IMG/VR virus record: IMGVR_UViG_3300044620_001883
Location: 32,001 to 96,000 of that record
Reading direction: 5' to 3' (one strand)
Source: a virus
Taxonomy: Duplodnaviria; Caudoviricetes
Length of the DNA: 64,000 bases
Below are positions 20,932 through 49,203 of this stretch, one piece after another. The stretch's first letter is position 1, and the number at the start of each line of letters is the position of its first letter. Position numbers and translations under genes: made by a program. The notes beneath the pieces are model-generated. The model had not been told where the DNA came from. It made no database searches and was given only the letters and a program-made list of their open reading frames with translations.

Positions 20932-22512
20932 ATGCGTGAATTCAAACCAAAAGGTGTGGAGCTGTTTGACCCGGATGATTTCGGGACACAGCGTACTCAT
21001 ATTTTCGACAAGGTACACGACGCGGTGAAAACTTCGTTTCCGCGCAGTTTTGGCGGCGTGCGCATGGAGCTCAAGGACTCGACCTACGAGGGCCCGGAGG
21101 ACTTTTCTCCGGAGGAGCAAAAGCAGGCACTGCTGAACAACAAGTTTTTGGGGCGCCGGCTGCGCGGGACCCTGCAGCTGTTCGACGACAAGACCAACGA
21201 CGTGCTGGACGAACAGCGTGTGACGCTCATGAATGTTCCCTGGTTGTCGCCTCGCGGTACGTTTCTGCACGGCGGTTCAAACTACACAGCCGTGCGTCAG
21301 CTGCGGTTGGTCCCAGGTCCCTATGGGCGTGTCATGAACAACGGCAACACCGAGGTTCATTTCAACGTGCGGCCCGGATCCGGGTCCGGCTACCGGGTCA
21401 TGCTGGAGCCCGAAACGGCGCAGTTTAAGCTCAAGGTTGGGAAACAGTCAGAGGTGCATTTATATTCGGTCCTGAAGGACATGGGCGTCCAGGACGATCA
21501 CATCAAGGGTATGTGGGGGGATGGTACATGGGAACGCAACGCCAAAAAGTACAACCCCAAGGCGTTCCAACAGGCTTACGTCAAGCTGGTGCCCACCCGC
21601 GAACAGCTCCCTGATGCCCCCAGAGTGGATCAAGTCAAACAGCTACGTGCGGCATTTGACCGCTCCCAGATACTGGCAAGCGTGCGGGACCAACACCTGC
21701 CAACCATGGCAGACACCGTCAAGCGCGCGGCCTTGGGTCGTGAGTTGGCGACAACTGACAAGGACTACGAGGATCTCGAAAAGGCTTTCAAGCCAGACTT
21801 CACACCCGAGGATCTGACGGACGTCAAGAACGCCATTTACGGCAAGTCGGGACCGCAGCTGGCGTCCATGAAGCAGTGGCCGGATGCGTGGATTAACAAG
21901 GACGTAGATCCTATGGGCTGGTTGGAATGGTATGACAATTACGCGGGCGGGCGGCGCTCCGAGGACGACGCCAGGCAGATCCAGCGCTGGTTGCGTTTCA
22001 AGCGCCGAGCCGGTGCACAGTATGTACAGAACCCAACGGCACGCCGGGGACACGCTTTGCGGAACTGGGGGATTGATGCGCCGACCCTCCTACCACAGGA
22101 GCGACAGGAGGCTGCCCGCAAGGACATGGACGCGCACAAGGCACAAGCCTGGGGTGACTGGGCCGCGAAAAGGGCCAGCTTGACCCGGCAAGACTTGATC
22201 GCGCTGGCCAGGTATATCAACCAGCAGAGCCAGGCGGCGTTACCTCTTGAGGGCACAGTTGAGGAACTCGAGCAGGCGATCAGCATCTTTCTGACACGCC
22301 CCGATAATCCGGACGCAGGCAATGACGCAATGCTGGCAGCTTCCAGCCTCTTCAAAACGGCGACAATTGCGCACATGATGGCGCGTCACCCGGAAGACTT
22401 CCAGATGGTCTTCGAGGCGGGGGACAACTTGAAGATCAAGTACGCCAACAGCGCCCAGGCCTGCACCGTGGTTGCCACACCCTTCATGGAGGTACTTGGA
22501 TGTCTTATTTGA
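20932..22512 (+). CDS. RNA polymerase beta subunit, N-terminal fragment, fused to extra domains
   Basis: VTLMNVPWLSPRGTFLHGGSNYTAVRQLRLVPG matches the RpoB N-terminal block; then a DPMGWLEWY...GRR..DD.RQIQRW domain; KRAA/KRAS/KTA motifs. Confidence 0.85.
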   Translation: MREFKPKGVELFDPDDFGTQRTHIFDKVHDAVKTSFPRSFGGVRMELKDSTYEGPEDFSPEEQKQALLNNKFLGRRLRGTLQLFDDKTNDVLDEQRVTLMNVPWLSPRGTFLHGGSNYTAVRQLRLVPGPYGRVMNNGNTEVHFNVRPGSGSGYRVMLEPETAQFKLKVGKQSEVHLYSVLKDMGVQDDHIKGMWGDGTWERNAKKYNPKAFQQAYVKLVPTREQLPDAPRVDQVKQLRAAFDRSQILASVRDQHLPTMADTVKRAALGRELATTDKDYEDLEKAFKPDFTPEDLTDVKNAIYGKSGPQLASMKQWPDAWINKDVDPMGWLEWYDNYAGGRRSEDDARQIQRWLRFKRRAGAQYVQNPTARRGHALRNWGIDAPTLLPQERQEAARKDMDAHKAQAWGDWAAKRASLTRQDLIALARYINQQSQAALPLEGTVEELEQAISIFLTRPDNPDAGNDAMLAASSLFKTATIAHMMARHPEDFQMVFEAGDNLKIKYANSAQACTVVATPFMEVLGCLI

Positions 22513-22982
22513 TTCTGCATCTTCCCCTGCCAGACCGTTATCGCGGAGCCTGGGCTGCCGCGCAGTTAAAGCTTGGGTGCAAGCCGCATGATGCCGACTT
22601 GGATCCCGGCATCCTGCTCGCATTGCTTCCGGCAGGTGTGGATGTGGATGCCCTCCGCGCGGGCTTGCCTGAACGTATCAGCTGTACGCTCGGGGATGTG
22701 GAGCAACAGGCTTCAGCTTCAGGAGCCGCTGTGGTCATCAACGTGACAGGGGAGGTGTTGGAGGTCTGGGAAGATTTGATGACCAGCGGGGCTGAACATC
22801 TCGACAACACTCCCACCCTCACGCTGGCCACCGGCATGTACGACGCGCTGGAAGCTGTGCAGGACATGCTGAGCGGTCAACGTGTGTTCTTTGACACACT
22901 GGACGTGTTGGATCTTGAAACCGGAGAATGCGTGGCAAGTTTTGATTTGAACGGAACGGAGGACACTGACGATGACGACTGA
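22500..22982 (+). CDS. Hypothetical protein, possible degenerate 2H-phosphoesterase fold
   Basis: Secondary-structure pattern resembles T4 57B-like proteins but the HxT motifs read PGIL / PTLT. Confidence 0.6.
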   Translation: MSYLILHLPLPDRYRGAWAAAQLKLGCKPHDADLDPGILLALLPAGVDVDALRAGLPERISCTLGDVEQQASASGAAVVINVTGEVLEVWEDLMTSGAEHLDNTPTLTLATGMYDALEAVQDMLSGQRVFFDTLDVLDLETGECVASFDLNGTEDTDDDD

Positions 22983-23622
22983 TCTCGACGTACTTGATAA
23001 TGCTGATATTCCTTCGGCTTCCGACGACCACTATGTACCAGTTGGTGTCGACGGTGTACTGGCTGCAACGCAAAAAGCGCTGGCGATCAATCGCGGCTTG
23101 GCCGAGCAGGACCACCGTGATGGTATTCAGTTCAAGCGCATCATGAACACACCCGACTTGTTGTCTGAGCGTGTACGGTTGGACGCAACCGGCTCCTTGC
23201 GCAAAACACTGGGCTACGCGGCCCGGCACCGATCCTTAAAAGGGTTTATGCCTGGAGCATTGAGCGATCTCGTGACGAAGCACATCACAGCCAGTCAGCT
23301 CGCTTCTCCTTTGGAGGAAATCAACCCGCTCGACGTCGCAAACCAGGCAAGGCGTGTCACGTTATTGGGTCCAGGCGGGGTCAGCAGCGCTGACATGATC
23401 ACAGATTCGATGCAGGCAATTCACCCCTCGATCTTTGGTTTCTTGTCCCCTATTGAAGGTCCTGAATCAGGGTCGGCCGGTGTCGACACCAGGTTGGCCA
23501 ACGGCGTCAAGATCGGGAGCAATGGGCGGCTGTACCAAAAGTTCAGAAATCCCCGCACGGGTGACATTCACTGGTTGTCCCCGGAAGATCTGCGCGGTAA
23601 GGTGATTGGCCTGCCCCGGTGA
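22972..23622 (+). CDS. RNA polymerase beta subunit, middle fragment (fork loop 2 / rifampicin pocket)
   Basis: DHRDGIQFKRI, SQLASPLEEINPL..RRVTLLGPGG, HPSIFGFLSPIEGPESGSAG. Confidence 0.92.
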   Translation: MTTDLDVLDNADIPSASDDHYVPVGVDGVLAATQKALAINRGLAEQDHRDGIQFKRIMNTPDLLSERVRLDATGSLRKTLGYAARHRSLKGFMPGALSDLVTKHITASQLASPLEEINPLDVANQARRVTLLGPGGVSSADMITDSMQAIHPSIFGFLSPIEGPESGSAGVDTRLANGVKIGSNGRLYQKFRNPRTGDIHWLSPEDLRGKVIGLPR

Positions 23623-23667
23623 ATTTCTTTTTGACAGGCTTCAACTCTCAACGTTCCTTTAAGTACT

Positions 23668-25248
23668 ATGTCACTCATCCTCCGCCCCCTTCGCACTGGT
23701 ATCTTCGGTTTTGGTCAGAAATATGTCCGGAACCTTGCGAACCGGGAAGACTTCACGATTCCAGCAGAGTTCGCGCTCGACAAAGAGGTCCTGGCGGCTG
23801 TCCGCAGCCATGTCGCCGCTGGCTACATGCAGGTCGTCAAATCGGACGCCATCCACGGCATCTCTTCGGTGCGTCCAAGCACAGCACGCAAAACACTTCT
23901 GGTACAGATCGGTGCCGGCGGGGTCATTCCAAATGGCGCCACGCTCAACAAGGTCACGCTTGGTGGGGTTCCCTTCACGTTCGGCAACTCCAACATTGAC
24001 GGCGCAACCACCGCCGCCCTGCTCGCCGCCTTCTTGGTGGAACTTGCAGCCAGCACCGACTTCGCCGCCACGGGCGCAACAGTACGCAGCTCCACTGAGC
24101 TGGCCACCCCCGCGGCTATTGCGGCCTCCGGTACGCTGACCGCCGCCGCTGCGCCTGCCAACAACGACACGGTCACGATCGGTGGCACTGTTTACACTTT
24201 CAAGACGGCGATCCAAGGCGTCACGGCCAATGAGATTCTGGTGGAGGTGGCAGCCAGCGACGCGTTGGACAACCTGATCGCCGCTATCACTGGTGGAGCT
24301 GGCAGCGGTACAAAGTACGGCTCGGCAACCGTCGCGCACACAACCGTTACGGCAGCTGCCGGCGCGGGTGATACAATCACGGTCACGGCCTCCACCGCCG
24401 GTTCGGCGGGCAACGCCATCGCCACCACGGAAACCGGCGCGAATCTTTCCTTCGGCGCAGCGACACTCACTGGCGGCGCGGACACGCATGCGGTTGTGAT
24501 CATCGACGGGGATGACGTCGCCGATTGGACTGCCTTTGGAGATGCCAGCAGCGTGACAGGTTCTAATGACCTGCCGCTGGCTACGCCGCTGGTGTCCTTG
24601 GAATTCAAAGCCGGCGCATATGCGACCGGCACGCTCACGAGCAACAACACCAATGTCACAGAAGGCGACACGGTCACGATTGTCGACAAGGTTTACACTT
24701 TCATGGCAACCCCAGCCGAAGAAGGTGATGTGGACATCGGCGCAGACGCCGATGGAAGCCTCCTGAATCTGATCCGTGCCATCAACCACTCCGGCACCCC
24801 GGACACGAATTACGTCTGTGCACTGCCACATCCGCACGTGACAGCCGCCACGTCAGTCACTTCCCACGCCTTTGCGGTCACGGCACGCGTTCCCGGCACC
24901 GATGGCAACAGCATTCCAACCACTGAGGTGGCGGCGACACTCTCCTGGGGAGCTGCGACTCTCGCAGGTGGCACTGACGTGCTGGATACCATCGCGACAG
25001 ACGTTCCCGTCTATGTGTCTCGCACGGTCACCGCGGCTGATGTCAGCCGTGGTTACATTGAACTCGACACAGGCCTCACAAATCTGTCCACCAAGTTCGC
25101 GGTCCGCATCACCCGTTCCGGCACCGCTGTGCTGCATGACGGCACCGTGAATGTCAAGGGCTCGGCCATCATCCTGATCCAGAACAACGGCAGTGTGGAC
25201 TTTGTCGCTGGTGACATCGTCCAGGCCTTCGCCGCCGGTGCTGATTGA
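23668..25248 (+). CDS. Virion structural protein with an internally duplicated beta-rich domain
   Basis: Two copies of A(S/T)GTLT..DTVTI...YTF..NLI.AI..G(N).I.TTE..LS(F/W)GAATL.GG.D; Ala/Thr/Gly-rich. Confidence 0.7.
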   Translation: MSLILRPLRTGIFGFGQKYVRNLANREDFTIPAEFALDKEVLAAVRSHVAAGYMQVVKSDAIHGISSVRPSTARKTLLVQIGAGGVIPNGATLNKVTLGGVPFTFGNSNIDGATTAALLAAFLVELAASTDFAATGATVRSSTELATPAAIAASGTLTAAAAPANNDTVTIGGTVYTFKTAIQGVTANEILVEVAASDALDNLIAAITGGAGSGTKYGSATVAHTTVTAAAGAGDTITVTASTAGSAGNAIATTETGANLSFGAATLTGGADTHAVVIIDGDDVADWTAFGDASSVTGSNDLPLATPLVSLEFKAGAYATGTLTSNNTNVTEGDTVTIVDKVYTFMATPAEEGDVDIGADADGSLLNLIRAINHSGTPDTNYVCALPHPHVTAATSVTSHAFAVTARVPGTDGNSIPTTEVAATLSWGAATLAGGTDVLDTIATDVPVYVSRTVTAADVSRGYIELDTGLTNLSTKFAVRITRSGTAVLHDGTVNVKGSAIILIQNNGSVDFVAGDIVQAFAAGAD

Positions 25249-25292
25249 TTTCCCTGCATTCCACAACAACCCCACCCACCCATACCCCGTAT

Positions 25293-25508
25293 ATGATTCC
25301 CTCCTCCGCCTACGTTAAACGCGCCTCGCAGATGTTCTTGCTTGGCGTCTCCGCTGAAGCACGCTCCCGTCACCAGGATTCCAGCAAGCTCCTGGAGAAG
25401 GTCGCCAGTGCCGCCCCCCGTCTGCAGGAACAGGCCGAAAAGGCTGTCCTGGGCACCTGTCTCTTCATCGACGCGCTGACGTCTCGCCTCAATGGGCAAG
25501 CCGCCTGA
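25293..25508 (+). CDS. Small KxA-motif protein (putative virion)
   Basis: VKRAS, EKVAS. Confidence 0.65.
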   Translation: MIPSSAYVKRASQMFLLGVSAEARSRHQDSSKLLEKVASAAPRLQEQAEKAVLGTCLFIDALTSRLNGQAA

Positions 25509-26097
25509 TGCCAGGTTATCCCGCGCGACCCATGAGCGGTTCGTGTGGTTTGTTCAGCAGCAACTTCAGTTACAGAAACGGAACGTGGTATCTCTCGGGG
25601 TACCACGTTCTGTGTTTTACAACTGGTGCAAAATGAGGCACCGACCAGGAAGGCGGCGTGCGGTACAAGTGTTACGCCTTCTAGGATTCAGCTGGGGTGA
25701 GTTTAGGGCGGCGGGCATGGTGACCCCGGAGGAAGGTTTGCCGGAGCTGCCGGTCAACGCAGGGATCGTCTGGGATCTCGCCAATATGTTCTCCCTCATC
25801 CTGGAAGAACCGGCGACGATCACAACAGACACACAACCCAACGCCGTGTGGTTTGCCAGGGTGCGGACTTTACACCTGGTTGTACACATGTCCCGCTGGT
25901 GTGAAGTATTTGACGGTCCTGCTTTGGTGTTGGCTGGTCAGTACTCGACAGGCTTCAGGAATGAGTGCGCCCGTATTGCGCGTTTAATCAGCGCACCTGT
26001 GCGGCGGCACAAGAAGAAATCGCAGATGAGCATTTCACGCTTGCAAAGCAAGATGCGTGCGCTTCATCTTAGCGGTGATGGTTCCTCCCAATGCTGA
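25492..26097 (+). CDS. XRE/Cro-like HTH protein
   Basis: LGVPRSVFYNWCKMRHRPGRRRAVQVLRLLG. Confidence 0.55.
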   Translation: MGKPPDARLSRATHERFVWFVQQQLQLQKRNVVSLGVPRSVFYNWCKMRHRPGRRRAVQVLRLLGFSWGEFRAAGMVTPEEGLPELPVNAGIVWDLANMFSLILEEPATITTDTQPNAVWFARVRTLHLVVHMSRWCEVFDGPALVLAGQYSTGFRNECARIARLISAPVRRHKKKSQMSISRLQSKMRALHLSGDGSSQC

Positions 26098-26656
26098 TGT
26101 CGCTTCGAATGACCTGGCCGAACAAGCTCTCTTGGAGCAGGCGGACAAATACCCCGCGCCCGCAGAACTGAGCAGACGCGCGCGTGCGGCGGAGAACTTT
26201 TTTACTGGCAAATCCAGCAGCTCTGTACAGGACCCTGACGACGCCGTCACACCAGTTTCCATCGCGCCGGTCAAACGTAAACGTGGAAGGCAACCGACAG
26301 ACAACACGCCAGTGGAAGCCAACACCACGGCTGCGGGTGAACTTGCACAGCTCCTTCTCTCCTCACAGGAGCGGATCACGCTCACCTTCGATTCCCTGAC
26401 CCTGCAATTCAGCGTGTTCGTGTATGTGAGTGAGGACGCCGCAACGTTAACTCTACTGGGCTGGGGCGCCAACCAAGTGCAGTTGAAGCTGCACGATATG
26501 GCCAGTCAGGTTATTAAAGTGACGCGACAGTCCGGTCAGGTTTACGACGCCATGTACCTCGGTGCCAGTGTCACGCTGGGGTTGCACGGTACGCTGATCA
26601 GTTTTATGCTGGTGGAGCATGATGATCAAAACTGGCATACCACCCGTCCAGAATAA
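26078..26656 (+). CDS. Hypothetical protein
   Basis: 192 aa; tiles with neighbours. Confidence 0.7.
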   Translation: MVPPNADVASNDLAEQALLEQADKYPAPAELSRRARAAENFFTGKSSSSVQDPDDAVTPVSIAPVKRKRGRQPTDNTPVEANTTAAGELAQLLLSSQERITLTFDSLTLQFSVFVYVSEDAATLTLLGWGANQVQLKLHDMASQVIKVTRQSGQVYDAMYLGASVTLGLHGTLISFMLVEHDDQNWHTTRPE

Positions 26657-26663
26657 AACAGCG

Positions 26664-26703
26664 GCACATCAACCCCAACCTCACGTGGTTGATGTTGATG
26701 TGC
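26664..26703 (+). terminator. Long hairpin upstream of the portal-like gene
   Basis: GCACATCAAC/GTTGATGTGC 10 bp plus inner CAACC/GGTTG. Confidence 0.5.
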
Positions 26704-26763
26704 TGGTTGAACTGATGCCTAAGCAGGCGGCAATCAAACCCTCCAAAACAACTTCCCACTCCC

Positions 26764-28572
26764 GTGTTCGAGTCGCATCAAAACTCACTGTCTAACACGG
26801 GAACCAGCGGGTTCTTGTCGTCGAGCATCTCCAAGTTTGGAGATCCTTTCATGCTGCCAAGCTGGTCCTTCGTCCCGGAGAACCTGACAGCACTTTTTGA
26901 AATTTGTCGTTTCCTGTACATCCGCACGCCTGAGTATGCGCGGGCCAGTCAGCGTGTTGTCTCGTATTTCCTCACGGATCTGGATTTCATCGGCGCCAAA
27001 TCCAAGGCCGGGGACAAGGCGGAACAGGATGAATTACGGGAGTGGATGCGCGACGGTATCGCCTTCTGGTTACATCTGGCTGAACTGGGGATGGACTGGT
27101 CGGCTTTCGGCAACGCGTTTGGACGGATGCACAGGCCGTTCAACAGGTTCCTGCTGATTCCCACGGACAATGGACACTCCGAAATGTCTGTGTCGGAGTT
27201 CCCGGATGCCAAGTACAAGTTTGAGACGCTCAAGTACGAGATTGCTGACCCTACACGTCAGCACCGCAGCCAGCGGCAGCGCCGCACTATTCAGGTCAAT
27301 TTCATTGACCGTGTTGCACGTGACCTGAACCGGCTGGCGTTGCGCCGGATCGATCCGGCTTACGCGTACCTCCAGCACGCGGACAGATCCGGGCGCTACC
27401 AGGTGGCTGAGCGTTTCCAGCCGTTCTTCAAAGCCGCTATCCGCCGCGGGGACCTGTGGCAGGTCAATGAGACTCCGATTGCGCAGCTGCGGGCGCTCGC
27501 CGCGGACAGTGATTTTCTCTACAACGAGGGGGAGGTGTTTCACCTGCGTGCTCCGTGCATCTCCGGCATCAGCGACTCCGGCTGGGGTATGCCTGAGATT
27601 CTGGCCAACTTCCCGAACATCCATCAGATGGCTGTCTACCGTCGAATCGACGAAGCCATTGGGTTGGACTATATGTTACCGTTCCGTGTGTTCTTCCCAC
27701 AGGCCGGCGCCAGCGGGTCACTCGACGCGTACGCGAACCAGGGCTCCATGCAGGTCTGGCAGCAGATGCTGCAGCAGATGATTGGAGACCGGCGCAAGGA
27801 TCCGTTTTCGATTCACGCCATGCCCTTCCAGATGGGCTTTGCGGAAGTCGGGGCCTCAGGCAAGCAGCTGACACCCAAGGAGAACATGGAGTGGCAGACC
27901 AACGCGATGCTAAACGCCCAGGGTTTTCCGGCCGAACTCTACAACGGTTCCATGGCTTGGCAGCAGGTGCCGACAGCCTTGCGGTTGTTTGAGAATACCT
28001 GGCAGCATTTGCCTTGGAGCTTCAACAAGCACCTCAAGTGGGTCGTGCGCACTGCCCTGGATTTCATGGGGCGGGAACAGATGCAGGTCAAGGCCGCCAG
28101 TCCGCGTATCCTCGACGACATCGAATCCCGGCAGGTGTACCTGCAATTGGCGGCCGGTGGAGAGTTTCCACGCCGCATCGCGTTCCGTCCTTACGGTGTG
28201 GACGATCCGGTCGAAGCAGCGGCGGAGCGAGCTCGCGAGAACGTCGAAATCAAACGGCAGGTGGACAAGATTCAGGCGGACGCTGCCTTGGAGGAAGGCG
28301 CAGGGTCAATCGGAGGAGGCGGCGGCGGCGCAGGTGGCGCACCGGGAGGGGTGGCCTACACACCTTCCCAGAAAGCCGAGCAGGCCCTCGCGGAGTCCCA
28401 GCGCTTGTTGCAGATCCAAGATGACGGGGATCGGGCTAAACAGCTCGCTGCCATCCGGTCCACGGATCCCGACATGCACGCTCTGGTGCGTCAGAAAATG
28501 ACGGAGCTACGTGCGGCTGCACGTAGTCAAGGCGGAGCGCAAGTGGCGCAGCTTGCATCAGCAGGGGCTTGA
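26764..28572 (+). CDS. Putative portal protein
   Basis: 602 aa; helical N-terminus, D..AFGNAF, WGMPEIL, EAI..DY..P blocks and a coiled C-terminus typical of phage portals; GTG start. Confidence 0.6.
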   Translation: MFESHQNSLSNTGTSGFLSSSISKFGDPFMLPSWSFVPENLTALFEICRFLYIRTPEYARASQRVVSYFLTDLDFIGAKSKAGDKAEQDELREWMRDGIAFWLHLAELGMDWSAFGNAFGRMHRPFNRFLLIPTDNGHSEMSVSEFPDAKYKFETLKYEIADPTRQHRSQRQRRTIQVNFIDRVARDLNRLALRRIDPAYAYLQHADRSGRYQVAERFQPFFKAAIRRGDLWQVNETPIAQLRALAADSDFLYNEGEVFHLRAPCISGISDSGWGMPEILANFPNIHQMAVYRRIDEAIGLDYMLPFRVFFPQAGASGSLDAYANQGSMQVWQQMLQQMIGDRRKDPFSIHAMPFQMGFAEVGASGKQLTPKENMEWQTNAMLNAQGFPAELYNGSMAWQQVPTALRLFENTWQHLPWSFNKHLKWVVRTALDFMGREQMQVKAASPRILDDIESRQVYLQLAAGGEFPRRIAFRPYGVDDPVEAAAERARENVEIKRQVDKIQADAALEEGAGSIGGGGGGAGGAPGGVAYTPSQKAEQALAESQRLLQIQDDGDRAKQLAAIRSTDPDMHALVRQKMTELRAAARSQGGAQVAQLASAGA

Positions 28573-28590
28573 TCTACATTTTGCGGTATT

Positions 28591-29232
28591 ATGCAACTTA
28601 TCCCGCACGCGGAACATGTTTCCAAACCACGCTCCCGGCTGCGCTATCAACGTATTGATGGGATGCCACCGCGTGGTTTCAATGAGCCCAAGGAGGACGA
28701 GGACCCTTCAGGCCTTTCCAAATTGAACTTGGTCGGCAAAGATTACTACAGTGGCTCCGGTACAGGCCCTGAAATTGAGAAAGTCTCAGCCCAGATCTGG
28801 GGTGCTCCTTTAGTCAATCTAGCTGTCAAACTCGCAACACGTCAGCCGCTGCCGTCGGGATTGGCGGCCGTGCATGACAACGCGACGTACATGAACACCG
28901 GCAAGCTGGTTCAAACGGACCCGTTCCGCCGTCCGGTTGGTGCGCCTGCTTGGCAATCCCAAACTCCCGACTTTCCTTTTCTGGGTACCTCGTTGTTTCA
29001 GCTGGCTCGTAATTTACGCAACAAGCTGCAAACCGCGCAGATGCCCAACATCCTGCAGCAGTCCGCCCCGCTGCGGGGCACTGTGGGGGCGTTGGGAGGT
29101 GCGGCGGCTGCTGCCGGCGCTGGCTGGTTGTCGAACATCCTGAATCAGAAGAACACCCCGCTGAGCCACTACGCCCTTGGCGGAGCAGGGCTCGCTGGTT
29201 TGCTCGCGTATGGAAGGGGCACCCACAAGTGA
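28591..29232 (+). CDS. KxA-motif virion/ejection-type protein
   Basis: EKVSA, VKLAT; two Gly/Ala hydrophobic helices. Confidence 0.7.
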   Translation: MQLIPHAEHVSKPRSRLRYQRIDGMPPRGFNEPKEDEDPSGLSKLNLVGKDYYSGSGTGPEIEKVSAQIWGAPLVNLAVKLATRQPLPSGLAAVHDNATYMNTGKLVQTDPFRRPVGAPAWQSQTPDFPFLGTSLFQLARNLRNKLQTAQMPNILQQSAPLRGTVGALGGAAAAAGAGWLSNILNQKNTPLSHYALGGAGLAGLLAYGRGTHK

Positions 29233-29507
29233 ACGTGGGAGCCCTGCTTCGTATGCTTATCCAAGGTGCCATGGATATTCCGCCCAGCGCCAAGCAGGGG
29301 ATCATGGGTATCATTGACCTTCTGCCGGAGGAACACAAACAGCGGTTGTTTCAACTTCTCAGGGCAGGCACGGCTGCAGGTATCGGCGCAGTTGTGTCCT
29401 CCTTCCTTTCGGGGTATGGTGGTCCGGGCGCACTCGCAGGCCTGGCCGTTCAATCCAGCATACGCTACGCCACACCAGATCAACTCACTTACCGTCCGTA
29501 TTTATGA
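29229..29507 (+). CDS. Small Gly-zipper protein
   Basis: GTGA/ATGA overlaps; AGTAAGIGAVVS. Confidence 0.65.
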   Translation: MNVGALLRMLIQGAMDIPPSAKQGIMGIIDLLPEEHKQRLFQLLRAGTAAGIGAVVSSFLSGYGGPGALAGLAVQSSIRYATPDQLTYRPYL

Positions 29508-30067: not shown

Positions 30068-30074
30068 ATGCGCC

Positions 30075-32495: not shown

Positions 32496-32502
32496 AACAC
32501 AC

Positions 32503-36939: not shown

Positions 36940-36944
36940 TACTT

Positions 36945-39060: not shown

Positions 39061-39068
39061 GTGACCAC

Positions 39069-39122: not shown

Positions 39123-39174
39123 AGCTATTGCGTCTTGCTGTGTACTGCTTAGATGTAAGCATCATATAGTACAC

Positions 39175-40999: not shown

Positions 41000-41207
41000 A
41001 CAAGAGGACCCCGTGTTGGGGAACCTGGTGGCCCGCTGGATTCTTCGTCGTCATGGTGCGTCGCCGTTTGCTGCACGGATGCTGGACATGAAGTCAGACC
41101 GCATGTTTGAAGAGATACGACGTGAAACACGCGCCCAACCCCGGAACGCTCCTTGTGGTTGCGGTTCTGGACAGAAGGCCAAGAAGTGCTGTAGTGCCCT
41201 GGTATGA
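40974..41207 (+). CDS. SEC-C motif protein
   Basis: PRNAPCGCGSGQKAKKCC. Confidence 0.8.
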   Translation: MEAIPIPFEQEDPVLGNLVARWILRRHGASPFAARMLDMKSDRMFEEIRRETRAQPRNAPCGCGSGQKAKKCCSALV

Positions 41208-41632
41208 CAAACCCCCTATCTCTTTCCGATTTTTTTGAGGCACTCGGCGGTATCGCTGCCTCTGTTTTAACCTGGCTCGATACTCCTGCTGCCTCCCCGT
41301 TCGAATCTCACAGTTTCGACATAGAGGATGACACCTTCAAAGGCTGGTTTACACCCGCGGTTTGCCAAGGCGCATCACTACGCGTGCGGCCGTTGGAAGG
41401 CCCGACGGGGCATGGGGTGGAGCTGTTGTTTTCCGTGAACGCTCCTGCAAATCCATTTCTGCATGGCAGCAAGCGTATGCAGACTCAATGGGTCGCTCCA
41501 ACTTTCAAGGCGTTGGGGTTGGATATTGATATCCTCGTTCCTCAGTCGAGTCACACGGTGTACATTACGCTCGTCCACACAGACTCACGCAGGAGTTGCG
41601 TACTGAGCGTCGTGTACTACCCACGCAAATAG
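41204..41632 (+). CDS. Hypothetical protein
   Basis: ATGA overlap. Confidence 0.65.
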   Translation: MTNPLSLSDFFEALGGIAASVLTWLDTPAASPFESHSFDIEDDTFKGWFTPAVCQGASLRVRPLEGPTGHGVELLFSVNAPANPFLHGSKRMQTQWVAPTFKALGLDIDILVPQSSHTVYITLVHTDSRRSCVLSVVYYPRK

Positions 41633-41668
41633 CGGTTGACAGTACCGTATGCGCGGGAACCATCTAGC

Positions 41669-41947
41669 ATGGACGAGACCATGCACAGCTACGATGTACT
41701 GCACCTTGCCGACTTGCTGGAGCGAGTCTGGCAGGAGCGTAGCATCGCGGCCTCGTTGGTTGAGCGCCAATCCTGGGATGTTGTTGAAGGGATGGTGCTG
41801 CACGCAACCTCGATAACGGCACTGGAGAGCAAGCTGCGCACCTGTATTAAGTTCGCGGCAAAAGGAGGTTACCGGAGAGTACTGAGGCTCGCTTTGACGC
41901 ACATGGAAGAAACCATCCTGAACATCTCGGCCTGTGTGGGAGTTTGA
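41669..41947 (+). CDS. Hypothetical protein
   Basis: Helical ORF that tiles with neighbours. Confidence 0.6.
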   Translation: MDETMHSYDVLHLADLLERVWQERSIAASLVERQSWDVVEGMVLHATSITALESKLRTCIKFAAKGGYRRVLRLALTHMEETILNISACVGV

Positions 41948-42134
41948 GTGTACGCTAGCGCGTGTGCTCACCCGCACAGGCCGCTTCACTGTAATGGCGG
42001 AGCGGAAAGAAGACGCGGAGGAGCAAGCGCTCAAGATATTGGCGGACCCGAAAAATCCGGCTGTCCAGTGGGATGCAGAAGCTGCCTGTCAGTCATCCAT
42101 GGTCGTATCCATTGAAAAAGTGGAGAAGGCCTGA
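41934..42134 (+). CDS. Small hypothetical protein
   Basis: FTVMAERKEDAEEQA pattern. Confidence 0.6.
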   Translation: MWEFECTLARVLTRTGRFTVMAERKEDAEEQALKILADPKNPAVQWDAEAACQSSMVVSIEKVEKA

Positions 42135-42150
42135 TTGGGATCTGTTCTAA

Positions 42151-42627
42151 ATGTCCAACACACTCACTTCAAATCTGCGCAGCCGGCGCAATCAACTCAT
42201 TGAATCCTTCGAGCAGGGATTCAGTTCTTCCGATATCCAGAGCGTCAACATCCTCGCGCATGCCCGGAGGCATTGGCCCGTACAGTTCACCTGGACCTAC
42301 CTGCTGGAGCGCCTGACGGTTATTCAGGGAGACACCATCACGGTGCCTGAGTTGTGGGAACTGCGCATGATTACCGATGCCGGACAGCACCCGGATTTCA
42401 ATCCGCTTGCCTGCCATCCCTGGTCTGGGTACAATCAACCCCACCCAGCTGATCGCACTTTGCAGCGCTTGAGCCGGGTTTTCGCAGGCTGCTGTGCGCG
42501 TCTGATGATAGACCGCGGGAGCGCGGTCACCCGTCAGTACTACATCCGGAGACTCCGGGCTGTGCTCGTGCGTGTCACAAATCTGTGTAACGCAGCCCAG
42601 CAGGAATACGACGACAACTGTCTCTAA
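42151..42627 (+). CDS. Hypothetical protein
   Basis: 158 aa; TAATG overlap. Confidence 0.7.
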   Translation: MSNTLTSNLRSRRNQLIESFEQGFSSSDIQSVNILAHARRHWPVQFTWTYLLERLTVIQGDTITVPELWELRMITDAGQHPDFNPLACHPWSGYNQPHPADRTLQRLSRVFAGCCARLMIDRGSAVTRQYYIRRLRAVLVRVTNLCNAAQQEYDDNCL

Positions 42628-42938
42628 TGTCTTTAACGGCCCAGCAACGCCATAACCGTACGGTGTGTAAATGCTGCCCTCAGTGTAATCTTCCCTCGGA
42701 TCGTTTGCTCCCAAGCGGACGCGCGGGGCTCTGCAGTGTGTGTCGCGTCCACCTGCGCGGTGTGCGGGATGTTTGGCGCGCTGACCGTCACGACCGGGGG
42801 CTGTGTCTGGACTGCGGTGGTCCTAAGGGGGTTAACAGGCAGGCACGTACTACCTGCCAGGGGTGTGCGGACTGCAAAGCGGCAAAGCGGCGAAATAGTT
42901 TGCAGGGCAACAGTCTCGTATGGACTATACCCCAATGA
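42627..42938 (+). CDS. Cys-rich Zn-finger protein
   Basis: CPQC, CSVC, CLDC, CQGC. Confidence 0.65.
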   Translation: MSLTAQQRHNRTVCKCCPQCNLPSDRLLPSGRAGLCSVCRVHLRGVRDVWRADRHDRGLCLDCGGPKGVNRQARTTCQGCADCKAAKRRNSLQGNSLVWTIPQ

Positions 42939-43480
42939 CACCCACCATCATCGCTTACAGCACCGCAGACTTGTTGTTTGGCAAGATCGATCGCGAGGCC
43001 ATGCAACGCTCCGTCGAGCAGGCAGTCACCGAATGGAATCGTGTACTTGCAGGGCTTGTGGTGTTTCAGCCCTGGGTGAAAGGCTGCACGGACCCTTTGG
43101 TGTTGATCACGTTTGGACACCAGTTCAAACCACGGCCAACGACAACAGAGACCTGGGCAACCTGTACACAGTTCCCAGGCAAGCTGGCACCGCGTTGGGT
43201 TATTGAGCTCAAGGACAACCCCAGGTTGAACTGGAAACCCCTGCCGGTAACCCGGTTCGGTATCTGGTGGCGCAGGGTAAACGGGCTTGCCGTTGGTAGT
43301 ATCTCGATTGTGGCGGTGCTGCTCCATGAATTGGGGCATGTGCTGCAGCTACCCCATGAGGAAGTTGAAGACTTGATCATGAGCGAGTCTTGCGCGCAGC
43401 GGGAAACCATCCGACCGATGGAAGCCAAACGGTACCGGACATGGTTTGAGAAATACATCGCGGCGCAGCAGCATGACTGA
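42935..43480 (+). CDS. Matrixin/M10-like metalloprotease
   Basis: HELGHVLQLPH followed by the Met-turn LIM. Confidence 0.75.
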   Translation: MTPTIIAYSTADLLFGKIDREAMQRSVEQAVTEWNRVLAGLVVFQPWVKGCTDPLVLITFGHQFKPRPTTTETWATCTQFPGKLAPRWVIELKDNPRLNWKPLPVTRFGIWWRRVNGLAVGSISIVAVLLHELGHVLQLPHEEVEDLIMSESCAQRETIRPMEAKRYRTWFEKYIAAQQHD

Positions 43481-43605
43481 GCGTCCCAAGTTCGCAGATG
43501 GTTCGGGCAATACCTGAGGTACGCGCTCCGGTTGTGGGAAGGTGAATGGCGCAAAGCGTAAATCTTACCCGTGACAATGGAGGGACCGGTGGTTAAACTT
43601 CTCCT

Positions 43606-45411
43606 ATGGCAACCCGTGCGGAATTCGACCAGCTCCTAAACAGTATCTACCAGGACAACCCCACCTGGTGGCCTCACGGCCTCAAACGCGCCCAGCTCGA
43701 CGAGGCGTTCGCGATCCGAGACCCTGCGACGCGCAAGCTGGCTGGTTTCACAGGCTGGCAGTTCCGCAACGATCAGACAGGCAAGAAGGCTGGCTACTAC
43801 GCTGTGGGACTCCTGCCGGAGTTCCGGCGCCAGGGGCTTGCGAAGCGTGCCCTGCAGGAAATGTTCCAGGAGCACAAGCCGGCGGATGTCCAGGATGTCC
43901 GGGCCTACATTGTGCCCGGTAATGAGCCGAGCCTGAAGCTCGCCGACAAGCTCGGGGTGCCTGTGCAGCATAAGATGGCACGCTTGCGCTCCCAACCGCT
44001 TCCCTCTATGTTGACCAAAATGGCACGCCGACCTTCCTACGTTCCAGGCTCCTACGGGGGTGTTTCTCTCCAGCAGTACATGCCGCTGGCACCCCGCCGT
44101 GCTGTGCTGAACCCAGAGGAACAGGCCAACGTCGAGGAAGGACAGAGTCAATGGTTCCCAAAACTTTTCAGGTCTATGGCTGACAGTCCTGCTGTGGACA
44201 TGTCCTCCCCTGCCAAGGCATCCTTGATGACAGCCTTGGTTGGTGGTGGAGCAGTCGGCGCAGGTGCCCACTTCCTAGGAGCCAAGCCAGAACACACGGC
44301 AATGGCCGGCGGCGGTGCGGCGTTGCTGTCTGGGTTGCTCGGTTACCACAGCCGCAAGGCCAACAACGAGGGGATCATTGAGATGATGCGCCGCCTACCC
44401 CCAGGTGGGACCCGTCGCGACATGCTGGCTGACCCGGTGCTGCAGCAGGAACTCAACCGCGAGAGTCAGACCGGTGCCTCCGAGGAAGCCCTCCGGACGG
44501 CCCAACTTCTGGCCGTCTTGAAAGCCACGTCCAAGACGGCGGCGGTGAAGCAAGCCGGTTGGCCCGAGGTTGCCAAGGCGTTGTGGACAGGCACCAAATA
44601 CATGGCGGCACCAACAGCAGGTGCGGTCGGCATGGACGCGTTATACAACGCCCCCAGTGGACGGTTTCTCACGACTGAACATTGGAAGGAACGCCTGGCG
44701 GACGGTTTGCTGAACACTACCATGTTCGGGATTGGCAAAGGTACGGGACGGTTGCCTGGTGTTTCCGCACTCGCGAAGGCCGAAGCGGCAAAGCGGCCCG
44801 TACAATTGACCATCGACGCCGCCAAGAGGTTAAAGATGATGGGCGGAGCAACAGGTATGGCGGTAGCTATTCCCGGTGTGTTCGCGAAGGATTTAATGCG
44901 GCGTAACATGAACACGGGTTCTGATTTGGTGGCCGCCTTGTCCAAGGAGCGTGGGACCAACGTCAACGTCACGGCTCCCGCCAATACCTCTGTCAACGTC
45001 ACGTCCCCGAGCATCTTTGATCAGGCTTCTCAGTACATAGACAAGAATCCGGGAACAGCCATCGCGGGTGGGCTTCTGGGCGCCGGGCTGCTGGGTGGTG
45101 TCGGTTATCTGGGCCTCAAGGGCATCAATGCCCTGCAGGGTGTCGCGGACCGTGCGGAGCGCCCTGAGTCTGGACGTATCCGGGTGACACTACCAACCAA
45201 GAACAAGGGTGACGCGGAAACGCAGCTTGATCTGCCTGTGCAGGAGATGGCACTCTCGGATGCTCTGGTGGGCAAGATTCGCCGCGATGTTCGTGGTCGC
45301 CTCCGGCACGAAACTAACGAGCGTACCAAACGCGTGATCCTCTCCCCGGAAGAGCGCCAGCGTCGAGCTGAGTTGTTGGCAAGCTACCGTAATAACGCTG
45401 TGAACGTATGA
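43606..45411 (+). CDS. GNAT acetyltransferase fused to a KxA-motif virion-type protein
   Basis: AVGLLPEFRRQGLAKRAL (motif A), NEPSLKLADKLG (motif B); then KMAR x2, KTAA, KQAG and Gly-zipper helices. Confidence 0.8.
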   Translation: MATRAEFDQLLNSIYQDNPTWWPHGLKRAQLDEAFAIRDPATRKLAGFTGWQFRNDQTGKKAGYYAVGLLPEFRRQGLAKRALQEMFQEHKPADVQDVRAYIVPGNEPSLKLADKLGVPVQHKMARLRSQPLPSMLTKMARRPSYVPGSYGGVSLQQYMPLAPRRAVLNPEEQANVEEGQSQWFPKLFRSMADSPAVDMSSPAKASLMTALVGGGAVGAGAHFLGAKPEHTAMAGGGAALLSGLLGYHSRKANNEGIIEMMRRLPPGGTRRDMLADPVLQQELNRESQTGASEEALRTAQLLAVLKATSKTAAVKQAGWPEVAKALWTGTKYMAAPTAGAVGMDALYNAPSGRFLTTEHWKERLADGLLNTTMFGIGKGTGRLPGVSALAKAEAAKRPVQLTIDAAKRLKMMGGATGMAVAIPGVFAKDLMRRNMNTGSDLVAALSKERGTNVNVTAPANTSVNVTSPSIFDQASQYIDKNPGTAIAGGLLGAGLLGGVGYLGLKGINALQGVADRAERPESGRIRVTLPTKNKGDAETQLDLPVQEMALSDALVGKIRRDVRGRLRHETNERTKRVILSPEERQRRAELLASYRNNAVNV

Positions 45412-46856
45412 CCACTCTTTCGCCCTTCATCAAGCTCGCACTCCTGCAGGACGGCGTCTCACCCAAGAGCGCCCCGGGTCCTGTGCGGCCTGCGGATCAA
45501 ACCAACGGCATCAAGCCAATCGTGATCCCGAACCATGCGGCTGAGGATCCGAACGCAGTCTCCCCTGAACAGACCAAGGCCGAGCAGGGACAGGTCAAGG
45601 CTGAGCAAACAGCCCAGCAGGCGCAGATGAAGGCCTTGGAAGCAGGCCATCAGCAGAAGCTGCAGCAGCAACAGATCCTGCACACCAAGGCCATGTCCAA
45701 CGCGGCAAACAACATGGGCGCTGGTTATTTCGGTAAGCGCTTCTCGACGACCATGGGGAACATCAGCAAGCTCACCCAGCAGGCAAGCATGTCCCGGTTG
45801 AACCATGGGCTCTATGGTCTCAAAACAGCGGCAGATGCTCCGAGTGCGCCCACCCTGACCCGCTCTGGCAAACCCTGGCCAACCGGGCGGGCCGCACCAA
45901 CAGGCGTGCTGAAGGGACCGCATATTGCGGATCTGTACCGCGACAACGGAATCAATTACAAAGCCCTGCAGGCTGGGCACTACGGTGATCCTGCGGCGCC
46001 TGTGCCAGGTGTCATGGACACGCTCTGGAATGGGATTAAGGAGCCCAGCAAGGCCCTGCCGATTGCACGTGCCGGTATCAGTACAGTTCCGGGTCTTAAC
46101 TGGTTTGCAGGTGACAAACCGGTCACGCCTTTCGGAGAGACACCGTGGCAACCCTTTTCGAACTCGGCCAAACCAGGTACGGTGGGAGCGTTGATGCCTA
46201 CCAGCTTACTCAACGGCGTAGCTAACGCGACGCAGTGGATGGGCAATAAAGCGCTCAACTTACCACGTGTACTGGGCAACGCCGGCTTGGCTGTAGGTGC
46301 AACAGGACTAGGGGCAGCCTCCCACACTGGCCAGGCTTACGCAGCAGCGCCCGATGCCTACAAGGAACTCTCGGCAGCTCATGCAACCCCGGAGGGAATC
46401 TGGAATACCCCGACCGACAAGCTGACTAAAACCAAGGCGATGCTTGGTCAACTTGGTTCGGGTGCACTGGATACTGCTAACACGGCTTTCACGGTTACTC
46501 CCTGGAAAGGGGTCGGACTGGCGGCGAAACCAATTGCGAAACTGCTGGGCCTCTCGTTTCCGCTCATGGAGGGGCCGATGGCCAACATGGGGCATGACGC
46601 GACTGTCGCACAGGCGACTGCCCAACAGCAGGCGCTGCGCGAGGCGGCGGCCAAGGCAGGACAACCATTGACCACCCCCAGCGGCTCAGGTGAATGGTTG
46701 CAAGGGCTGCTTGGACAGCTCGGCACCTACCTGAAGAATCGCACAGGCTCCATGGTAGCAGGTGGACAACCACAGACGCTGCCCTCCACAGTAGGGGCGC
46801 AAGGGCTGCCTGTGCGCTCCATGACGGGATTCTTGCGGGAAGCACTCGGAACCTAA
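45408..46856 (+). CDS. KxA-motif Ala/Gly/Pro/Gln-rich virion-type protein
   Basis: IKLAL, LKTAA; hydrophobic Gly-rich segment. Confidence 0.75.
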   Translation: MTTLSPFIKLALLQDGVSPKSAPGPVRPADQTNGIKPIVIPNHAAEDPNAVSPEQTKAEQGQVKAEQTAQQAQMKALEAGHQQKLQQQQILHTKAMSNAANNMGAGYFGKRFSTTMGNISKLTQQASMSRLNHGLYGLKTAADAPSAPTLTRSGKPWPTGRAAPTGVLKGPHIADLYRDNGINYKALQAGHYGDPAAPVPGVMDTLWNGIKEPSKALPIARAGISTVPGLNWFAGDKPVTPFGETPWQPFSNSAKPGTVGALMPTSLLNGVANATQWMGNKALNLPRVLGNAGLAVGATGLGAASHTGQAYAAAPDAYKELSAAHATPEGIWNTPTDKLTKTKAMLGQLGSGALDTANTAFTVTPWKGVGLAAKPIAKLLGLSFPLMEGPMANMGHDATVAQATAQQQALREAAAKAGQPLTTPSGSGEWLQGLLGQLGTYLKNRTGSMVAGGQPQTLPSTVGAQGLPVRSMTGFLREALGT

Positions 46857-46868
46857 AGTCCACGCCTC

Positions 46869-47309
46869 ATGTTCAAAGCACCTCTCATCAACGCCGCCGC
46901 CAACACAAGCCCGAGCGCGCACATCAGACTCAACTACGGCACCCCAAGTGGGGAGGCCCTGCCGAGTCTGACATCCAGCCCAATGGCGGATGCGCTGCTG
47001 CGCTTTGGTCGGGCGGCTCTAATGCCCGCAGGGCGTGCTGAGACGTTTGAACCTTCAACATACCGCCTGCCGAATCTCATAGGGCGCATGAACGGCAGTT
47101 ACGGGGTGGGTGGTGAGTTCTACGCAAAGGCGCTCGGCAACGTGGAGGCAGCGCAACAGCTTGCAGCGCAGTCTCAGGCTGGTCTCATGGCCGCCGTGCA
47201 GGGCACCGGTGCCGCCCCCTACGCGCTACCGCTGTATGAAACCTTGCAGGACCCACGTTGGGGACCTGAGGCCAGCAATCTCCGCAACGCGCTTTTCCAT
47301 GCATCGTGA
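46869..47309 (+). CDS. Hypothetical protein (probably virion)
   Basis: Ala-rich, between virion and RNAP genes. Confidence 0.7.
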   Translation: MFKAPLINAAANTSPSAHIRLNYGTPSGEALPSLTSSPMADALLRFGRAALMPAGRAETFEPSTYRLPNLIGRMNGSYGVGGEFYAKALGNVEAAQQLAAQSQAGLMAAVQGTGAAPYALPLYETLQDPRWGPEASNLRNALFHAS

Positions 47310-49203
47310 AGTCGTTAACGCCCAGTATGAATTGGATCGGCGCCCTGAAGAGGACGTCGATTTCGAGTTCATGTCTCCCAATCAATTCGTCGGTCCCAAT
47401 GTCGGGCTGATCCCGCTGCAGAATGCCGTCCAACCTACCCGGTTGTTCTACGGTGCCCGTTTCGCCAACCAGGCACAACCACTGGTAAAACCAGAGGCAC
47501 CATGGATCCAGACCAGCATGGATGACACGCCGGACACGTCATTTGACGACATGCTTGGCGGTACGGCCGGCGCTATCCGCTCTGACGGGGACGCCACGGT
47601 TGAGGATGTGGCGGACACACAAATCAAACTGCGACTGGCAGATGGAACTCCCAAGGTGATCGGGCTGTATCGCAACATGCCCTTCAACCGGTACAGCGGA
47701 ATCACACAGACCCCGACGGTCACGAAGGGACAGACTGTCAAAGCCAAGGACCTGCTGGCCCGTTCCAACTTCACAGACGAGAAGGGTTCCCTGGCGTTAG
47801 GCCTCAACGCCCGTGTGGGGGTTGTTCCCTTCAAGGGGTTCTCGATGGATGATGCCATGGTGGTCTCGGACAAGTTCGCAAAGCGGGCCACCAGCCTCCA
47901 TCTGGATTCCATCGACAAGGACTTTTCAGGGGGCAACCTGAAGAGCGGCCAAGACCACTTCAAGTCACTGTTCCCTGACATGTACACCAAAGATCAGCTC
48001 ACGCTGCTGGACGAGCACGGCATCGTGCGTCCAGGTCAGGTTGTACAACCGGGCGACCCTCTGATCCTGGCCACCCGTCCGCGCAACTTCAATTCAGCCC
48101 AGTCACAAAGCCTGGGGCGCTTGGGCAAGGTAGCGAGACAGCTCCGCGCGGATGCCTCTGTGCAGTGGGACAGCGCAGTGCCAGGTACCGTCACGGACGT
48201 GGTGCGCAAGAATGACGGATCTGTGAAGGTGCTGGTCGAGAGTCATCGCCCCATGCAGAAGGGCGACAAGCTTGTCCTGCGCTCGGGCCAGAAGGGGATC
48301 GTCTCAGCGGTCATCCCCGAGCATGAGATGCTCCGCACAGCGTCGGGTGAACCGCTGGAGATGCTGCTCAACCAACAGGGTCTCCCATCGCGTGCCAACC
48401 CCTCGCTGTTACTTGAGATCCTTCTTGGAAAAGTTGCAGCCAAGTCAGGCACCCCAATGAAGCTCCCGGCGTTCAATCCGAACGAGGACAGTTGGATAGA
48501 CTTTGTGGCGGCCAAGCTCAAGGAAGCAGGCATGACCGACAAGGAGACTGTGTTCGATCCCAAGGACAACCGCAAGCTGGACAGGCCGATCACAACCGGC
48601 AATGCCTACGTGTTGAAGCTGCACCACATCGCAGAGCACAAATACGACGCACGTGGGCAAGGGGGGTATGACCAGGACGGACAACCTTCGAAGGGGTCTG
48701 GCCTTGGTGGCGGCGCCAAACGTCGCTCAGGTCTCGAGACTACCGTGATGCTCAGCAGCGGCGCGTACAACAACCTCCGGGAGTCCAGCACATTGACGGG
48801 GCAGCAGAACGATGATTTCTGGCGCACCTTCAGGTCAGGGCAAACCCCCAAAGCTCCAGGCTCTCCTTTTGTGTTCCAAAAGTTCAGGGCACTTCTGAAC
48901 GGTGCTGGCATGCACGCGCGCGAAATGGGCGGCGGCAAACTTCGGTTGGGTCTCCTGACTGACAAACAGCTCGAGCAATTCAAACCCCTGAAAGTACATT
49001 CCGGTGAGACCATTGACTTCCGCACCTTGGCTCCCAAGGCAGGCGGTCTCTTCGACCCGGCATTGGTGGCCAACAAGAACTGGGGTTACATTGACCTCCC
49101 GGAGCCTATGCCGAACCCAGCCGCAGAGGACACCATTCGCCAGCTGCTTGGGATCACTCGCAAGGACTTCGAGGAAGTTCTTGCCGGTACTCGGCCGCTG
49201 TGA
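47299..49203 (+). CDS. RNA polymerase beta C-terminal fragment fused to the beta-prime N-terminal segment
   Basis: GFSMDDA, GDKLVLRSGQKG, GLPSRAN, LKLHH..ARG, GGGAKR; then LGLL..ETIDFRTLAPKAGGLFD..WGYIDLPEP (RpoC region A without the Zn ribbon). Confidence 0.92.
   Translation: MHREVVNAQYELDRRPEEDVDFEFMSPNQFVGPNVGLIPLQNAVQPTRLFYGARFANQAQPLVKPEAPWIQTSMDDTPDTSFDDMLGGTAGAIRSDGDATVEDVADTQIKLRLADGTPKVIGLYRNMPFNRYSGITQTPTVTKGQTVKAKDLLARSNFTDEKGSLALGLNARVGVVPFKGFSMDDAMVVSDKFAKRATSLHLDSIDKDFSGGNLKSGQDHFKSLFPDMYTKDQLTLLDEHGIVRPGQVVQPGDPLILATRPRNFNSAQSQSLGRLGKVARQLRADASVQWDSAVPGTVTDVVRKNDGSVKVLVESHRPMQKGDKLVLRSGQKGIVSAVIPEHEMLRTASGEPLEMLLNQQGLPSRANPSLLLEILLGKVAAKSGTPMKLPAFNPNEDSWIDFVAAKLKEAGMTDKETVFDPKDNRKLDRPITTGNAYVLKLHHIAEHKYDARGQGGYDQDGQPSKGSGLGGGAKRRSGLETTVMLSSGAYNNLRESSTLTGQQNDDFWRTFRSGQTPKAPGSPFVFQKFRALLNGAGMHAREMGGGKLRLGLLTDKQLEQFKPLKVHSGETIDFRTLAPKAGGLFDPALVANKNWGYIDLPEPMPNPAAEDTIRQLLGITRKDFEEVLAGTRPL

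Follow-up and report, generated by a model that had tools for sequence, protein, structure and literature searches.

How does a phage come to encode the beta subunit of a bacterial-type RNA polymerase (RNAP) in three separate genes, do the pieces still make one enzyme, and is that enzyme carried in the virion? These questions are raised by a stretch of 64,000 nucleotides from the virus record IMGVR_UViG_3300044620_001883, the whole of which is called the window here and corresponds to the minus strand of C1:49070-113069 in the linear IMG/VR virus record G000 (121,077 bp, 59% complete according to CheckV). The source is an uncultured tailed phage with a genome of about 200 kb, and nearly all genes of the window lie on its plus strand. 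A first-pass annotation, made from the sequence without database searches, had described beta as split into three collinear genes starting at 20932, 22972 and 47299 and lying up to 24 kb apart, and Pfam and PDB matches together with alignments to the E. coli subunit place all three on the plus strand in that order, the largest distance being the 23.7 kb between the second and the third gene. According to our analysis, it is probable that the window holds three of at least five genes for the two large subunits of one bacterial-type RNAP, that the pieces assemble and that they go back to a fused gene; packaging of the enzyme in the virion is plausible.

Pieces of beta and beta-prime on the record

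The three genes of the window (Table 1) are referred to as betaN, the fork piece and betaC. BetaC encodes the catalytic double-psi beta-barrel, the flap and the clamp of beta and continues in the same frame into the first about 90 residues of beta-prime (about 48937-49203), without the zinc-binding domain that comes next in cellular beta-prime. It matches PF00562 (Rpb2 domain 6) with an E value of 1.4e-58 (199 bits versus a cut-off of 23.4) and the bacterial beta subunits of the PDB with an E value of 2.5e-51. The five catalytic residues that had been reported as kept could be mapped residue by residue: E. coli D814, K1065, K1073, R1106 and H1237 correspond to D185, K324, K332, R365 and H443 of betaC, numbered from 47299. 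When the last 100 residues of betaC and of 12 clade homologues were combined into a profile, beta-prime residues 6-56 were hit in 27 of 28 PDB matches, which are individually weak (E values of 0.04-1.1). Since the end of betaC is thus the N-terminus of beta-prime, the border between betaC and the following beta-prime gene falls inside beta-prime.

The fork piece matches PF04565 (Rpb2 domain 3; E value of 3e-8, 34 bits versus a cut-off of 21) and 48 beta subunits in the PDB, with E values down to 1e-10, and is aligned by blastp to residues 423-607 of E. coli RpoB. The strong Pfam and PDB matches of the fork piece and betaC bear out the earlier statement that the enzyme is close to cellular RpoB. 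In four relatives the fork is likewise a stand-alone gene, of 225-257 amino acids (aa), and in the genomes G001 and G004 it lies inside longer frames (483 and 603 aa, respectively). Compared with E. coli, the rifampicin (Rif) pocket carries the changes Q513S, D516E, H526Q and S531T, with R529 kept; from these altered residues, the phage enzyme is probably insensitive to rifampicin.

In betaN, the beta part is confined to the first about 262 aa, which correspond to about E. coli 20-414 and comprise the entire beta2 lobe together with the beta1 part, and the other about 264 aa form an accessory domain. A phmmer search of the PDB returned beta subunits only, with a weak match (E value of 0.0025) covering residues 77-242, and the Pfam models for protrusion and lobe gave no match in betaN. 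By tblastn, betaN was matched to residues 28-231 of gp206 of the Salmonella phage Arash. In its AlphaFold2 (AF2) model, with a mean predicted local distance difference test (pLDDT) score of 78, residues 5-262 fit the bacterial beta1/beta2 region with VIA Z scores of 8-9.8, and residues 126-262 superpose on the E. coli lobe (residues 151-413) at 3.0-3.5 Å with Z scores of 8.2-8.6. BetaN is 32-42% identical within the clade and has homologues in 45 database clusters.

The motif NADFDGD of beta-prime had been expected outside the window, and a search of the full record located the catalytic beta-prime gene, here called beta'N, 57.6 kb downstream of betaC. It is the sole match to Rpb1 domain 2 on the record (PF00623, E value of 9e-17) and carries NADFDGD at aa 951-957. 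Its product is predicted to consist, in this order, of a HAD-like domain, two CxxC...CxxC zinc ribbons, a beta-prime segment equivalent to about E. coli 178-273, an intein and a further beta-prime segment equivalent to about 339-550; for the HAD-like domain, the DLDGT motif and a weak match to PF25109 are the only support. The intein runs from C459 to N829, is followed by S830, contains two LAGLIDADG-like motifs along with a Hint match and sits within the conserved GKQGRFRQNLLGKR motif. An open reading frame (ORF) of 666 aa after beta'N was considered as the C-terminal part of beta-prime (beta'C) and rejected, with no PDB match and no counterpart in 15 relatives.

The accessory domain of betaN (residues 268-526, encoded by 21733-22512) is modeled by AF2 as a confident, mostly helical domain with a pLDDT of 80 and bears the conserved signature GW..WY..Y..GRR..DD.RQI.RW..FK.R. 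No match was found for it in Pfam, PHROGs or Atlas, nor any PDB fold at E <= 0.001; it weakly resembles GCR1_C-type and unnamed proteins of the AlphaFold database (probability of 0.97, 28-34% identity over about 80-90 residues, E value of about 0.2). Homologues of betaN range from 323 to 916 aa and have the core of about 262 aa in common, with differing tails. The same GW..WY..GRR..RQI.RW domain is found in the tails of G002, G003 and G004, and a domain with two HxT motifs takes its place in G001 (L056) and G006 (L061), which, judging from the motifs alone, reads as 2H phosphoesterase-like. Among the database homologues, one carries PF18823 (InPase; P0145) and another carries PF13563. In G006, moreover, the domain type of this phage's betaN tail sits at the N-terminus of the beta'N ORF, and the HAD-like head of this phage's beta'N is found between betaN and fork within the unsplit beta of locus L021. 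Because the tail and head domains vary in position among relatives, we infer that accessory modules shift between the ends of the pieces and their junctions.

Between betaN and the fork piece lies an ORF that overlaps both by a few bases. It has no Pfam or PHROG match and no BLAST match in six relatives, where its spot is occupied by no ORF or by different small ORFs; it is called as a gene in independent assemblies too.

Table 1. Positions of the RNAP genes and of neighboring features (window coordinates unless stated otherwise)
Feature	Position	Strand	Length and content
betaN	20932..22512 (ORF 20923/20932-22512)	+	526 aa; residues 1-262 RNAP beta N-terminus, 268-526 helical extension
Acidic ORF between betaN and fork	22500..22982	+	160 aa; very acidic; not part of beta; ends DTDDDD
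Fork-loop/rifampicin-region piece	22972..23622	+	216 aa; about E. coli beta 423-607
betaC	47299..49203 (ORF 47110/47299-49203)	+	634 aa; about E. coli beta 650 to end, then beta-prime start
beta'N (outside window)	C1:3110-6241; window-equivalent 106829-109960	minus strand of C1	1043 aa
Portal	26764..28572	+	tblastn match to Arash portal gp204, E values of 6e-35 to 6e-38
PolA	8451-11876		1141 aa; family A
Four HI-x-VS ORFs (outside window)	window-equivalent 101025-106792; L004:6278-12045	minus strand of L004	tag N-terminal in two, internal in two

The split clade and its fused relatives

We asked whether the layout is special to this phage. A scan of viral contigs with betaC alone gave nothing, and an alignment-based scan of IMG/VR gave 33 loci, of which 27 were studied by tblastn; in addition, fifteen of the longest IMG/VR records were searched with each RNAP piece, and six complete or nearly complete split-clade genomes were compared (five complete and G005 at 86%). 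Searching a database with betaC gave 280 proteins at E <= 1e-20, and the best 120 of them were characterized. No match was obtained when 20 kb were compared with GenBank phages by megablast.

The split is not confined to one assembly. Identical genes for betaN, the 160-aa ORF, the fork piece and betaC, with the same neighbors, are present in at least five samples from Logan and JGI assemblies, and the identical 634-aa betaC has been called in at least four other samples. The split recurs in more than 100 database protein clusters. The best 120 proteins of the betaC search are all at least 49% identical, are mostly 626-683 aa long and are in many cases encoded on contigs of 180-220 kb, the longer matches among them (about 980-1057 aa) carrying intein families or, in one protein (P0072), beta-prime domains. 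At 13 of the 27 loci, betaC stands alone: a stop precedes the match by 16-64 codons, and neither fork nor betaN occurs within 10 kb. At the other 14, including Arash, betaN, fork, betaC and beta'N are found in one frame of 1456-2603 aa, the longer of these unsplit frames containing intein-like or other inserts.

In the six split-clade genomes, betaN, fork, betaC and beta'N follow in order on one strand, and beta'C, for which five of them were searched, comes next if an arbitrary assembly start is allowed for. The spacing varies, with 0.3-2.8 kb between betaN and fork, 12.5-45 kb between fork and betaC and 0.6-44 kb between betaC and beta'N. In cells, beta is one polypeptide (two in some archaea) encoded in the rpoBC operon; here it is encoded by three genes, of which betaC also provides the beta-prime N-terminus. 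The first-pass annotation was right about the split, and the layout is the rule in a large uncultured clade. We found no paper describing this clade, the Arash fusion or a split rpoB of this kind in phages. The architecture is that of a phage multisubunit RNAP with split subunits, a kind that is known and of which this clade presents a new form.

The unusual layout alone might suggest a decaying captured rpoB or an assembly chimera, with the phage relying on the host RNAP. We hardly consider this credible, since the frames are open and the catalytic residues intact, the pieces are 39-53% identical to their counterparts across the six split-clade genomes with the same residues invariant, and the layout recurs both in independent samples and throughout the clade.

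A second explanation, in which the pieces are rejoined into one beta chain by a group I or group II intron, a split intein or recoding, draws on the richness of the clade in inteins, which interrupt beta'N in this phage and, in relatives, betaC or the fork gene. However, no Rfam family scored above threshold in the window, hence there is no sign of a known group I or II intron, and none of betaN, the 160-aa ORF, the fork piece and betaC gave a match to a Hint domain. The betaN tail, instead of being half of a Hint domain, is the helical domain of 264 aa, and in all relatives the pieces have separate starts and stops, with 23.7 kb separating the fork piece from betaC in this phage. We therefore deem such rejoining very improbable and retain separate polypeptides as our reading.

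The unsplit genomes also tell what became of the sequence at the cuts. In unsplit relatives such as G012, the counterparts of betaN aa 10-250, fork aa 19-215 and betaC aa 19-634 follow one another in one frame, separated by only 10-25 residues, and from this it follows that no part of beta has been lost in the split form. The first cut falls at the lobe/protrusion junction (E. coli about 414/423), the second between the fork domain and the external domains (about 608/650) and the third within beta-prime, between E. coli residues of about 150 and 178. The second cut presumably lies near the junction of archaeal B'' and B'.

In a tree of the betaC segment, computed with IQ-TREE under LG+C20+F+G4 from 23 phage rows and E. 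coli as an outgroup on a long branch, the 13 split rows lie on one side of a branch with support of 100/100, and Arash and nine fused genomes that form a clade of their own fall outside them, so that one change of state suffices. The sister clade of the split loci has the fused gene, as does the cultured phage Arash. BetaC keeps the start of beta-prime; in P0072 it is still fused to beta'N; and four of the split loci have beta'N 1.6-4.6 kb beyond betaC. On these grounds we place fusion first and a stepwise break-up after it. The comparisons indicate that one fused beta-beta'N gene is the older state, from which the split layout is derived.

The following course of events is proposed. In an ancestor with a fused beta-beta'N gene, one cut would have fallen at the junction of lobe and protrusion, a second would have followed the fork domain and a third would have lain within the N-terminus of beta-prime, after which blocks of 12-45 kb would have come between the pieces, and the new protein ends would have been free to gain accessory domains. 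The order of the resulting five genes would be betaN, fork/Rif, betaC, beta'N and then beta'C in the missing part of the genome. The pieces would fold on their own and come together non-covalently as a working enzyme, just as E. coli beta fragments, archaeal B''/B' and the subunits of phiKZ and AR9 assemble from separate chains. A complex prediction with betaN 1-265, betaC 1-500 and the fork piece as partner scored 0.85, and the control with betaC replaced scored 0.75, which makes the prediction uninformative. By analogy with Arash, the enzyme would then probably be loaded into the capsid, injected and used to transcribe early genes, and a phage sigma factor may direct it.

Gene neighborhood and packaging

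The earlier description of the pieces as embedded among portal and KxA proteins holds in part. A portal gene is present in the window, whereas enrichment in K-x-A was not confirmed and the other flanks consist of replication and nucleotide-metabolism genes. The portal lies 3 kb downstream of the fork piece and is the only recognizable virion gene in the interval between fork and betaC, where the other genes that could be named encode a MazG-like protein and a protein with a GNAT domain. A portal match was found in 14 of 15 related genomes. Five split-clade relatives gave a portal match. The distance is 1.6-6.4 kb in four of them, G002, G003, G004 and G006, and the portal is located upstream of the beta genes in G001 (by 18 kb), in Arash and in seven of nine unsplit genomes. 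Upstream of betaN, we identified genes for a primase, a PolA with a uracil-DNA-glycosylase (UDG) domain, helicases and a recombinase-like ATPase, and betaC is followed by genes for a NAD-dependent ligase and an Ogg-like protein. In the PolA, the domain of the UDG superfamily is N-terminal and is accompanied by a 3'-5' exonuclease.

As for K-x-A, the observed and expected counts are 6 versus 3.2 in betaN, 0 versus 0.7 in the fork piece and 5 versus 3.2 in betaC, which is no enrichment, and the excess per protein is unconvincing in the window at large, the best among 167 ORFs being 10 versus 4.3 and 9 versus 4.1. In four otherwise unrelated ORFs just upstream of beta'N, we observed a shared peptide, HI[KQR]VS..[LMY][LV][GK][KRQ][AG], which is referred to as the HI-x-VS...K-x-A/G tag. 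These ORFs are preceded by a gene for a 901-aa protein with an InPase domain, which matches the PHROGs "minor head protein" and "virion structural protein".

The analogy on which packaging rests is the mass spectrometry of Arash virions, in which gp206 gave the most spectra and gp216 and the sigma factor gp10 were also abundant (PMC10585845). The same data have to be set against a different reading, according to which the split RNAP is functional and not packaged, being made by the host RNAP after infection and confined to the transcription of middle and late genes, in the manner of the phiKZ non-virion enzyme or T7 RNAP. This would agree with the replication and nucleotide-metabolism genes flanking betaN and betaC and with RNAP pieces that carry neither a packaging tag nor K-x-A enrichment, and the Arash authors themselves considered that abundant enzymes might contaminate virion preparations (PMC10585845). 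It fits less well with gp206 leading the spectra of purified virions in the company of a sigma factor, with the conserved neighborhood of portal and beta genes, with the InPase domain, filed by PHROGs under head and virion proteins, that is fused to betaN in P0145, and with the single RNAP set per genome. Each RNAP piece is represented by one locus in this record and in each of 15 related genomes, and an all-against-all BLAST of the ORFs of the record revealed no paralogues. An enzyme confined to the infected cell is in our opinion possible, though rather less probable than its opposite.

Several observations weigh against the reading of a complete and packaged enzyme. The RNAP pieces have neither the HI-x-VS tag nor an excess of K-x-A, that is, no packaging signal in their sequences. 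In the about 120 kb of Arash that were compared, the RNAP pieces and the portal were the only proteins of the record to find a match, and with so few shared proteins the transfer of the virion result from Arash is weak. No beta'C with Rpb1 domain 5 (PF04998) is present on this 59%-complete record, and a tblastn search of the record with Arash gp216, its beta'C, gave no match. The searches for the remaining subunits came out negative as well, with no sigma70 region 2 or 4 on the 121-kb record and no alpha (RpoA, PF01000) in five complete relatives. With sigma, alpha and beta'C not found, the composition of the holoenzyme is incomplete on present evidence.

For beta'C and sigma, the relatives provide some guidance. 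A beta'C gene with PF04998 was detected in all five complete relatives searched, 10-82 kb beyond beta'N, and beta'C of this phage most likely lies in the missing about 80 kb of its genome. A clear sigma70 region 2 is encoded by two of the five complete relatives; in a third the match is weak and falls short of the cut-off. Taking both sides together, we see about even chances that the RNAP is packaged in the virion, as the analogy with Arash would suggest.

Comparison with known polymerases

Arash, with its subunits gp206 and gp216, has an RNAP of the same lineage, with 31% identity over the region equivalent to betaC, all pieces recognizable, the portal as a neighbor and one set of genes. Residues 28-231, 270-468, 475-1103 and 1142-1524 of the 1525-aa gp206 (L008:18573-23150) match the four pieces in order by tblastn, and consequently the published beta subunit of Arash is a beta-beta'N fusion. 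The Vibrio phage D69 has a gene of 1527 aa (L064:3480-8063) with a betaC match, located behind a portal-sized gene, whose other segments were not aligned. In GenBank, gp206 is named "RNA polymerase subunit beta" and the D69 protein "hypothetical protein". Arash and the Vibrio phages D69, D148 and D181 have beta and the N-terminal about 415 aa of beta-prime in one gene for about 1525 aa, located beside the portal, whereas in the phage studied here this sequence is distributed over four genes within 89 kb and has gained domains and an intein.

The mReC phages are, like the present one, uncultured tailed phages in IMG/VR with cellular-type beta and beta-prime, and differ in gene sizes. They have been described by Weinheimer and Aylward (2020) with adjacent full-length genes for beta (about 1011 aa) and beta-prime (about 904 aa), and splits are not mentioned (PMC7481178). 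A contig that is probably identical to G005 was reported among the hits not clustering with mReC (PMC7481178), and our betaC tree contains no mReC sequence.

In cellular RNAPs, fragments of the large subunits are able to assemble into an active enzyme, and the subunits can also fuse, as is known from archaeal B''/B', cyanobacterial gamma/beta-prime, the beta-beta' fusion of Helicobacter and fragments of E. coli beta. The cyanobacterial and archaeal splits have also been described (PMC7598289). Cellular split genes stay adjacent in one operon, whereas distances of 12-57 kb separate the pieces here, and one of the cuts falls inside beta-prime instead of at the border of the subunits.

The phiKZ and AR9 enzymes resemble the present one in having beta and beta-prime in four or five polypeptides, in a beta-prime cut soon after the catalytic barrel and in encoding no alpha, a gene that was also absent from the five relatives searched here. 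Beta of the phiKZ virion enzyme is likewise in three parts (PMC7824862), and AR9 subunits carry a fused accessory enzyme domain, such as HD (PMC7598289). Both differ in a divergence so high that their homology to cellular RNAP is difficult to recognize, in having two paralogous sets and no sigma and in other cut sites; here we find one set, clear cellular homology and, in some relatives, sigma-like proteins.

The coexistence of fused, partly split and dispersed forms in relatives makes the order of events, the tolerance to cuts and the recruited domains readable, and the cut sites offer natural split points, tested by selection, for RNAP engineering. With cultured fused relatives in Salmonella and Vibrio, this is a tractable system for the assembly of large-subunit fragments without a phage alpha and a test case for the packaging and injection of a bacterial-type RNAP. 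A wider and rather doubtful idea is that the split and fused clades together display a cellular-type RNAP in the course of breaking up stepwise, from the fused gene, through betaC and beta'N adjacent or fused, to five genes scattered across about 100 kb, each new end gaining enzyme and DNA-binding domains; phiKZ and AR9 could then have taken the same route instead of being relics older than the last universal common ancestor. If this were true, the added HAD, 2H, InPase and GCR1-like domains would each have a working role in an injected transcription machine. The split phage RNAPs known so far are of the phiKZ/AR9 type and are too divergent for their origin to be traced. The enzyme described here, in contrast, has clearly stayed bacterial-type and is far less divergent than the phiKZ RNAPs, and its split, unlike theirs, can be traced to a fused ancestor.

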